From assembly GCF_000027125.1 (NCBI RefSeq), contig NC_017626.1: 64,000 nt of DNA, one strand, 5' to 3'. The notes beneath the pieces are model-generated. The model was not told where the DNA came from, searched no databases, and saw only the letters and a program-made list of their open reading frames with translations. Source of the DNA: Escherichia coli 042 (GTDB lineage Bacteria > Pseudomonadota > Gammaproteobacteria > Enterobacterales > Enterobacteriaceae). The position numbers and the translations under genes are program-made. Position 1 is the first letter of the stretch; every line of letters begins with the position of its first letter. This document shows, piece by piece, positions 41,354 to 41,469 of the stretch.

Positions 41354-41435
41354 AACAAAAAACCCATCAACCTTGAACCGAAATGGCGGGGTTGATGGGC
41401 TCCACAAAATGGGGACATCAAAGAAAAGCAGTGGC
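41354..41435 (-). ncRNA. rybB: sigmaE-dependent small RNA RybB
   Basis: Reverse complement reads GCCACTGCTTTTCTTTGATGTCCCCATTTTGTGGAGCCCATCAACCCCGCCATTTCGGTTCAAGGTTGATGGGTTTTTTGTT, the remembered RybB sequence with its terminator hairpin and U-tail. Confidence 0.9.
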
Positions 41436-41441
41436 ACTAAT

Positions 41442-41469
41442 TAAGACTGATGCCCTGCGGAAAAGTTCT
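41442..41469 (-). promoter_or_regulatory. sigmaE-type promoter of rybB (-35 GAACTT, 16 nt, -10 TCTTA)
   Basis: Minus-strand read AGAACTT-N16-GTCTTA immediately upstream of the RybB 5' end. Confidence 0.6.

Follow-up and report, generated by a model that had tools for sequence, protein, structure and literature searches.

rybB in Escherichia coli 042: an intact small RNA gene with a sigmaE-type promoter between rcdA and ybjL

Location and identity of rybB

The small RNA gene rybB of Escherichia coli 042 lies on the minus strand between rcdA (ybjK) and ybjL, within the 64,000-nucleotide stretch of chromosome that we analysed (the window; coordinates refer to it unless another genome is named). 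The main features at the locus are as follows.

ORF end at 41337, plus strand: rcdA (ybjK), flanking gene
41435..41357, minus strand: RybB sRNA as in K-12, 79 nt; the transcript may extend 1–3 nt further, to 41354
41432..41354, minus strand: Rfam RybB match, full RF00110 model
41512..43197, minus strand: ybjL, flanking gene on the same strand as rybB, stop codon 41514..41512

The ybjK(rcdA)–ybjL intergenic region is the published location of rybB (PMC1804206), and both flanking genes proved to be those named in the original prediction, which had been made from the sequence alone. An Rfam scan with 4,227 families returned RybB (RF00110) as the sole gathering-level match in the whole 64 kb window. 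At 105.3 bits (E = 1.3e-20), the match exceeds the gathering threshold of 40 and covers model positions 1–79 of 79; the model begins three bases inside the transcript, whose 5′ end is the G at 41435. Beyond RybB, a permissive Rfam rescan of 38000..45000 gave only one match, to a family of human lncRNAs, which is below threshold and carries no meaning. In the K-12 MG1655 record, the ncRNA rybB (b4417) is found at 887979..888057 (minus strand), also between rcdA and ybjL, and pairwise alignment places this span at window positions 41435..41357 (minus strand). No base differs between the window and MG1655 over the stretch that starts at the ybjL stop codon, spans promoter and RNA and ends with the U-tail (100% identity), and the first differences are four substitutions directly 3′ of the U-tail. 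The Rfam score and this identity bear out the earlier claim that RybB is present intact on the minus strand, and the coordinates, strand and sequence details given with that claim all proved right. The region is almost certainly the E. coli chromosomal rybB gene, with its proposed sigmaE-driven transcription and repression of omp mRNAs, and the analysis turned up nothing that speaks against this identification. The rybB of E. coli 042 is an ordinary, already known and well-studied gene, not a variant. It shares its neighbours, seed, terminator and sigmaE-type promoter with K-12 RybB (b4417), Salmonella RybB and the RF00110 family, and does not differ from K-12 at any position within the gene.

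RefSeq genomes annotated with PGAP carry no feature beneath the rybB match, whereas the curated K-12 record has one. The gene is therefore easy to miss, as had been remarked beforehand: rybB is a textbook sigmaE-dependent, Hfq-binding sRNA, yet most RefSeq E. coli genomes lack it because automated annotation passes over it, and its recovery shows a scan to be working as it should. The same gap in annotation could be held to suit a locus that has decayed or fallen silent, so that strain 042 would no longer express or use it. We regard such decay as highly improbable, since the promoter, start, RNA body and terminator match the experimentally characterised K-12 gene base for base. The 116-nt element that spans promoter and RNA is moreover found in 5418 of 5426 complete E. 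coli genomes, with at least 99% identity in 5254 of the 5420 matching records, and the synteny of rybB is unchanged in more than 5,400 genomes. Near-invariance of the element across E. coli points to purifying selection on a working gene.

A conserved sigmaE-type promoter

Directly upstream of rybB are the two blocks of a sigmaE-type promoter and, further upstream, an A/T tract (positions relative to the RNA start in brackets).

41489..41480 (-54..-45), minus strand: A/T tract AAATTTTTTT, candidate UP element
41469..41461 (-34..-26), minus strand: sigmaE -35 element AGAACTTTT, one mismatch to the consensus GGAACTTTT
41447..41442 (-12..-7), minus strand: sigmaE -10 element GTCTTA, two mismatches to the consensus GTCAAA

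The predicted GAACTT-N16-TCTTA motif lies at 41468..41442 (minus strand), with GAACTT at 41468..41463, a 16-nt spacer and TCTTA at 41446..41442. An equivalent description is AGAACTTTT-N13-GTCTTA; a further 6 nt lead from the -10 element to the +1 G, so that the motif is correctly spaced from the annotated rybB 5′ end. Both blocks are close to the published sigmaE consensus (-35 GGAACTTTT, -10 GTCAAA), and the rybB upstream region has been described as a near-perfect, conserved sigmaE match (PMC1804206). The rybB promoter is reported to rank among the strongest of the sigmaE regulon (PMC4102768, PMC3326320) and to compete strongly for RNA polymerase in vitro (PMC3326320). These measurements apply directly to the window, whose promoter region is identical to that of K-12.

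The motif alone is statistically uninformative. The loose pattern GAACTT-N15-17-TCNNA is not rarer than chance, with two matches in the window against 1.3 expected; the other, GAACTT-N17-TCTGA at 55703..55730 (plus strand) in the art operon region, is taken as a chance occurrence. The significance of the rybB promoter thus comes from its position, its conservation across species and the published experiments rather than from the match itself. Conservation was assessed by a footprint of 75 distinct sequences upstream of rybB orthologues in many genera of enterobacteria, anchored at +1 without gaps.

-54..-45: A-run then T-run, conserved across genera, UP element-like
-33..-27: GAACTTT, 97–100% conserved
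-25..-14: spacer, sequence free to vary, length constant
-13..-10: AGTC, 97–100% conserved
-7: A, 100% conserved
-4 and -1: T, 100% conserved

Four bases of the -10 element (G-12, T-11, C-10 and A-7) are invariant in all 75 sequences. The reading of this motif as sigmaE-type agrees with the published consensus and with this strong footprint. UP elements function at sigmaE promoters (PMC3326320), and the A/T tract at -54..-45 may serve as one at rybB. A generic promoter scan missed the sigmaE promoter, which reflects a limit of that tool, as it covers sigma-70 sites only.

The RNA body and its 5′ seed

The RNA body has its 5′ end at the G at 41435 (minus strand), where it opens with GCCACTGCTTTTCTTTGATGTCCCC; a longer stretch from the same start reads GCCACTGCTTTTCTTTGATGTCCCCATTTTGTGGAG. 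Its first 16 nt form the target-recognition domain.

41435..41420, minus strand: 5′ seed GCCACUGCUUUUCUUU

The seed is identical to that of K-12 and contains CRCUGCUUUU, the conserved seed of sigmaE-dependent sRNAs (PMC6694218). Orthologues were fetched with the RybB 5′ 29-mer from one-genome-per-species collections, giving 79 loci that include Escherichia, Salmonella, Citrobacter, Klebsiella, Raoultella, Kluyvera, Kosakonia and Enterobacter, as well as Pluralibacter, Trabulsiella, Yokenella, Serratia, Xenorhabdus, Sodalis and Edaphovirga. The RNA alignment holds 44 sequences, 43 of them distinct. All 44 have an invariant seed, though positions 3–31 were fixed by the search pattern.

Complementarity to known targets was computed with ompC and ompW sequences from K-12 rather than from strain 042. 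Against the ompC leader, the seed forms a perfect 8-bp duplex at -49..-40 (-17.4 kcal/mol), a value that none of 500 shuffled seeds matched. With ompW it forms a longer, interrupted duplex at +5..+21 (-15.5 kcal/mol), which 17 of 500 shuffles equalled. Within the window, a search for seed complements returned seven matches with at most two mismatches, against 7.5 expected, and the sole perfect one is rybB itself; this search gives no evidence of a local RybB target in the window.

The minimum free energy (MFE) fold of RybB contains a 5′ CCAC/GUGG helix that pairs C2–C5 with G31–G34 and would partly mask the seed. We rejected this helix as a conserved element: it shows no covariation, is broken in six of the 43 distinct sequences, which come from several genera, and is probably not under selection. 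For the same reasons the seed is most likely free (single-stranded), as the literature assumes.

The terminator and its conservation

The 3′ part of RybB is occupied by an intrinsic terminator.

41401..41361, minus strand: terminator hairpin in the MFE fold, 12-pair stem
41399..41390, minus strand: 5′ arm of the inverted repeat, CCCATCAACC (core CCCAUCAACC)
41372..41363, minus strand: 3′ arm of the inverted repeat, GGTTGATGGG (core GGUUGAUGGG)
41362..41354, minus strand: U-tail UUUUUUGUU, T6 at 41362..41357 then GTT; conserved in orthologues

The 3′ end of the element reads TTTTTTGTT and finishes at 41354 (minus strand). Arms and U-tail are those of the hairpin that the original prediction had described. 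The whole RNA folds with an MFE of -25.2 kcal/mol (z = -3.3), and none of 200 shuffled sequences folds as well. Among the 43 distinct orthologous sequences, six of the 12 stem pairs show compensatory changes and 99.2% of the cells are paired, whereas sliding the stem partners by 1–3 columns as a control leaves 19–46% paired. Examples of covarying arms are CCCAUCAACC/GGUUGAUGGG, CCCGAUAAUC/GAUUAUCGGG and CCCGAGCGUC/GACGCUCGGG. The U-tail is the 3′ end left by the intrinsic terminator and, going by the literature, is expected to be the Hfq-binding 3′ end; the 3′ part of RybB has itself been used as an Hfq-binding scaffold (PMC6694218).

The alignment also bears on whether the region might be a small-protein gene, a suggestion that would draw on three short ORFs overlapping rybB in the mechanically compiled ORF list.

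41293..41421, minus strand: short ORF, 42 aa, TTG
41383..41520, plus strand: short ORF, 45 aa
41450..41584, plus strand: short ORF, 44 aa

Their lengths are as expected by chance, and K-12 has no annotated CDS here. Conservation is that of an RNA: in addition to the compensatory stem changes, the loop varies in length through indels of 1–3 nt, with no codon periodicity. We rejected the three as chance ORFs and consider a small-protein gene more improbable still than a silent copy of rybB.

A generic terminator scan missed the RybB terminator, again through a limit of the tool, as the loop of the outer stem exceeds its range of 3–8 nt. The same scan found no terminator-like site between the ybjL stop codon and rybB (41514..41436, minus strand), so the RybB hairpin probably also ends ybjL transcripts. 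On a weaker reading, ybjL read-through transcripts could be a sigmaE-independent source of RybB-containing RNA.

Proposed action of RybB

The identity to K-12, the family membership, the promoter blocks, the terminator covariation and the seed–target complementarity were computed here, and they fit the published model of RybB action. In this model, sigmaE is released once misfolded outer-membrane proteins trigger proteolysis of RseA (PMC1804206, PMC4102768, PMC6694218). RNA polymerase carrying sigmaE would then recognise the -35 element AGAACTTTT and the -10 element GTCTTA and start at G41435, and transcription would end at the intrinsic terminator to give an RNA of ∼79–82 nt. The 3′ hairpin and U-tail would anchor RybB on Hfq, leaving the single-stranded 5′ end GCCACUGCUUUUCUUU to base-pair with many outer-membrane protein mRNAs (ompC, ompW, ompA and others). 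Such pairing would block translation of omp mRNAs and speed their decay. Fewer new porins would enter the stressed envelope, relieving the stress and lowering sigmaE activity in a feedback loop.

For sigmaE dependence, Hfq binding, target decay and the feedback loop, this outline draws on the literature or on inference. The first three have been established for the identical K-12 sequence and for the Salmonella orthologue (PMC1804206, PMC4102768, PMC6694218), as has the function of the RybB seed (PMC6694218). The same behaviour in vivo may be presumed for strain 042 from its sequence.

RybB is one of several sRNAs of this type. MicA and MicL of E. coli and MicV and VrrA of Vibrio cholerae likewise combine a sigmaE promoter with repression of abundant envelope proteins through an Hfq-dependent sRNA, and MicV and VrrA have the same CRCUGCUUUU seed as RybB (PMC6694218, PMC4102768). 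All four are, however, distinct genes at other loci, with sequences unrelated to RybB outside the seed, and no Rfam match to any of them occurs in the 64 kb window.

A prophage attachment site at the 3′ end of rybB

A phage attachment core overlaps the 3′ end of the gene.

41367..41341, minus strand: P2-like (Felsduovirus) attachment core, 27 nt, ATGGGTTTTTTGTTGCCTGAAATTTAT, from the BL21 junction repeats

The core starts in the 3′ arm of the RybB terminator and takes in the U-tail; in the window it is unoccupied. In BL21, a ∼20-kb P2-like prophage, running from ogr to the integrase gene, is found at the rybB site, flanked by the 27-nt core as a direct repeat. This prophage encodes a reverse transcriptase of the retron St85 family together with an effector. 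Klebsiella phage KP12 carries a 27-nt match to the core between its integrase and ogr genes, the expected position of attP. The site is occupied in about 1,200 of 5,422 complete E. coli genomes, in which the match to a 451-nt query is interrupted at window position ∼41341. This is a known hotspot, with published accounts of Felsduovirus prophages inserted in rybB (PMC10121019) and of an island in Klebsiella RybB (PMC4048246). The rybB site resembles the tRNA and tmRNA integration sites of temperate phages: attB is formed by the 3′ end of a conserved small RNA gene, and the copy of that end which the phage brings makes the gene whole again after integration (PMC10121019, PMC4048246). It differs from them in that the target is a regulatory sRNA; here the site is empty. 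Strain 042 thus has an intact sRNA arm of the envelope-stress response and no prophage at the rybB hotspot, and neither observation advances an open question.

Could the sequence owe its importance chiefly to its use in prophage attachment or in terminating ybjL transcription, with the sRNA incidental? The overlap of the 27-nt core with the terminator 3′ arm, the many genomes interrupted at this point and the probable role of the hairpin in ending ybjL transcripts, with no other terminator-like site before rybB, would all suit this idea. These observations concern the 3′ end only, however, and are compatible with sRNA function. Phages typically target conserved RNA genes precisely because of that conservation. 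Nor would an attachment or terminator role account for the invariance of the 5′ seed, the conservation of the sigmaE promoter blocks or the published regulatory activity of RybB (PMC1804206, PMC6694218). Seed mutants with an intact 3′ end abolish omp regulation in K-12 and Salmonella, according to the literature cited in PMC6694218. We therefore give an incidental sRNA very little credence.

The four substitutions that separate the window (GCCTGAAATTTA) from K-12 (ATCTAAAACTTA) just 3′ of the U-tail, at 41353, 41352, 41349 and 41345, fall inside the attachment core. They are exactly the four positions at which the two junction copies in BL21 differ from each other. The window allele of the core (GCCTGAAATTTAT) is common to E. 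albertii, is closely matched in Kluyvera and Klebsiella, and equals the rybB-side junction of BL21. The K-12 allele (ATCTAAAACTTAT) equals the rcdA-side (integrase-proximal) junction. As the window allele occurs in E. albertii, with close matches in other genera, and the K-12 allele is that of the integrase-side junction, K-12 may carry a phage-derived core. We tentatively conjecture that the four substitutions are footprints of prophage traffic rather than neutral drift, such that the empty site of K-12 type would be the scar of a Felsduovirus that had inserted and was later excised, and the attB of the window would be ancestral and never converted; we consider this scenario less likely than not.

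Other differences from K-12 in the window

The window is colinear with K-12 847580..908361 save for two strain-specific insertions. Smaller differences are also present. A ∼150-nt K-12 element between rlmC and artJ (899665..899818) is missing at the equivalent window site (53017..53034), and an 85% identical copy of it is found at window 10012..10163; the element probably belongs to the mobile repeats found between genes (REP/BIME- or ERIC-like). A further 65 bp of K-12 (900790..900855) is absent at window ∼53990.

Both insertions are absent from K-12. The larger, of ∼2.5 kb (57620..60167), lies between ybjP and ybjQ and contains a 600-aa ORF at 58216..60018 (plus strand) with weak matches to pentapeptide repeats (PF13599, E = 1.6e-8, below the curated cut-off). 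The smaller, of ∼1 kb (29089..30083), lies between dgcI and rimO and contains ORFs at 29478..29864 and 29159..29488 (both minus strand). These encode, in that order, a RelE-family toxin (PF06296, E = 2e-32) and an HTH_3/MqsA-like antitoxin, and the pair is a predicted strain-specific type II toxin–antitoxin system.
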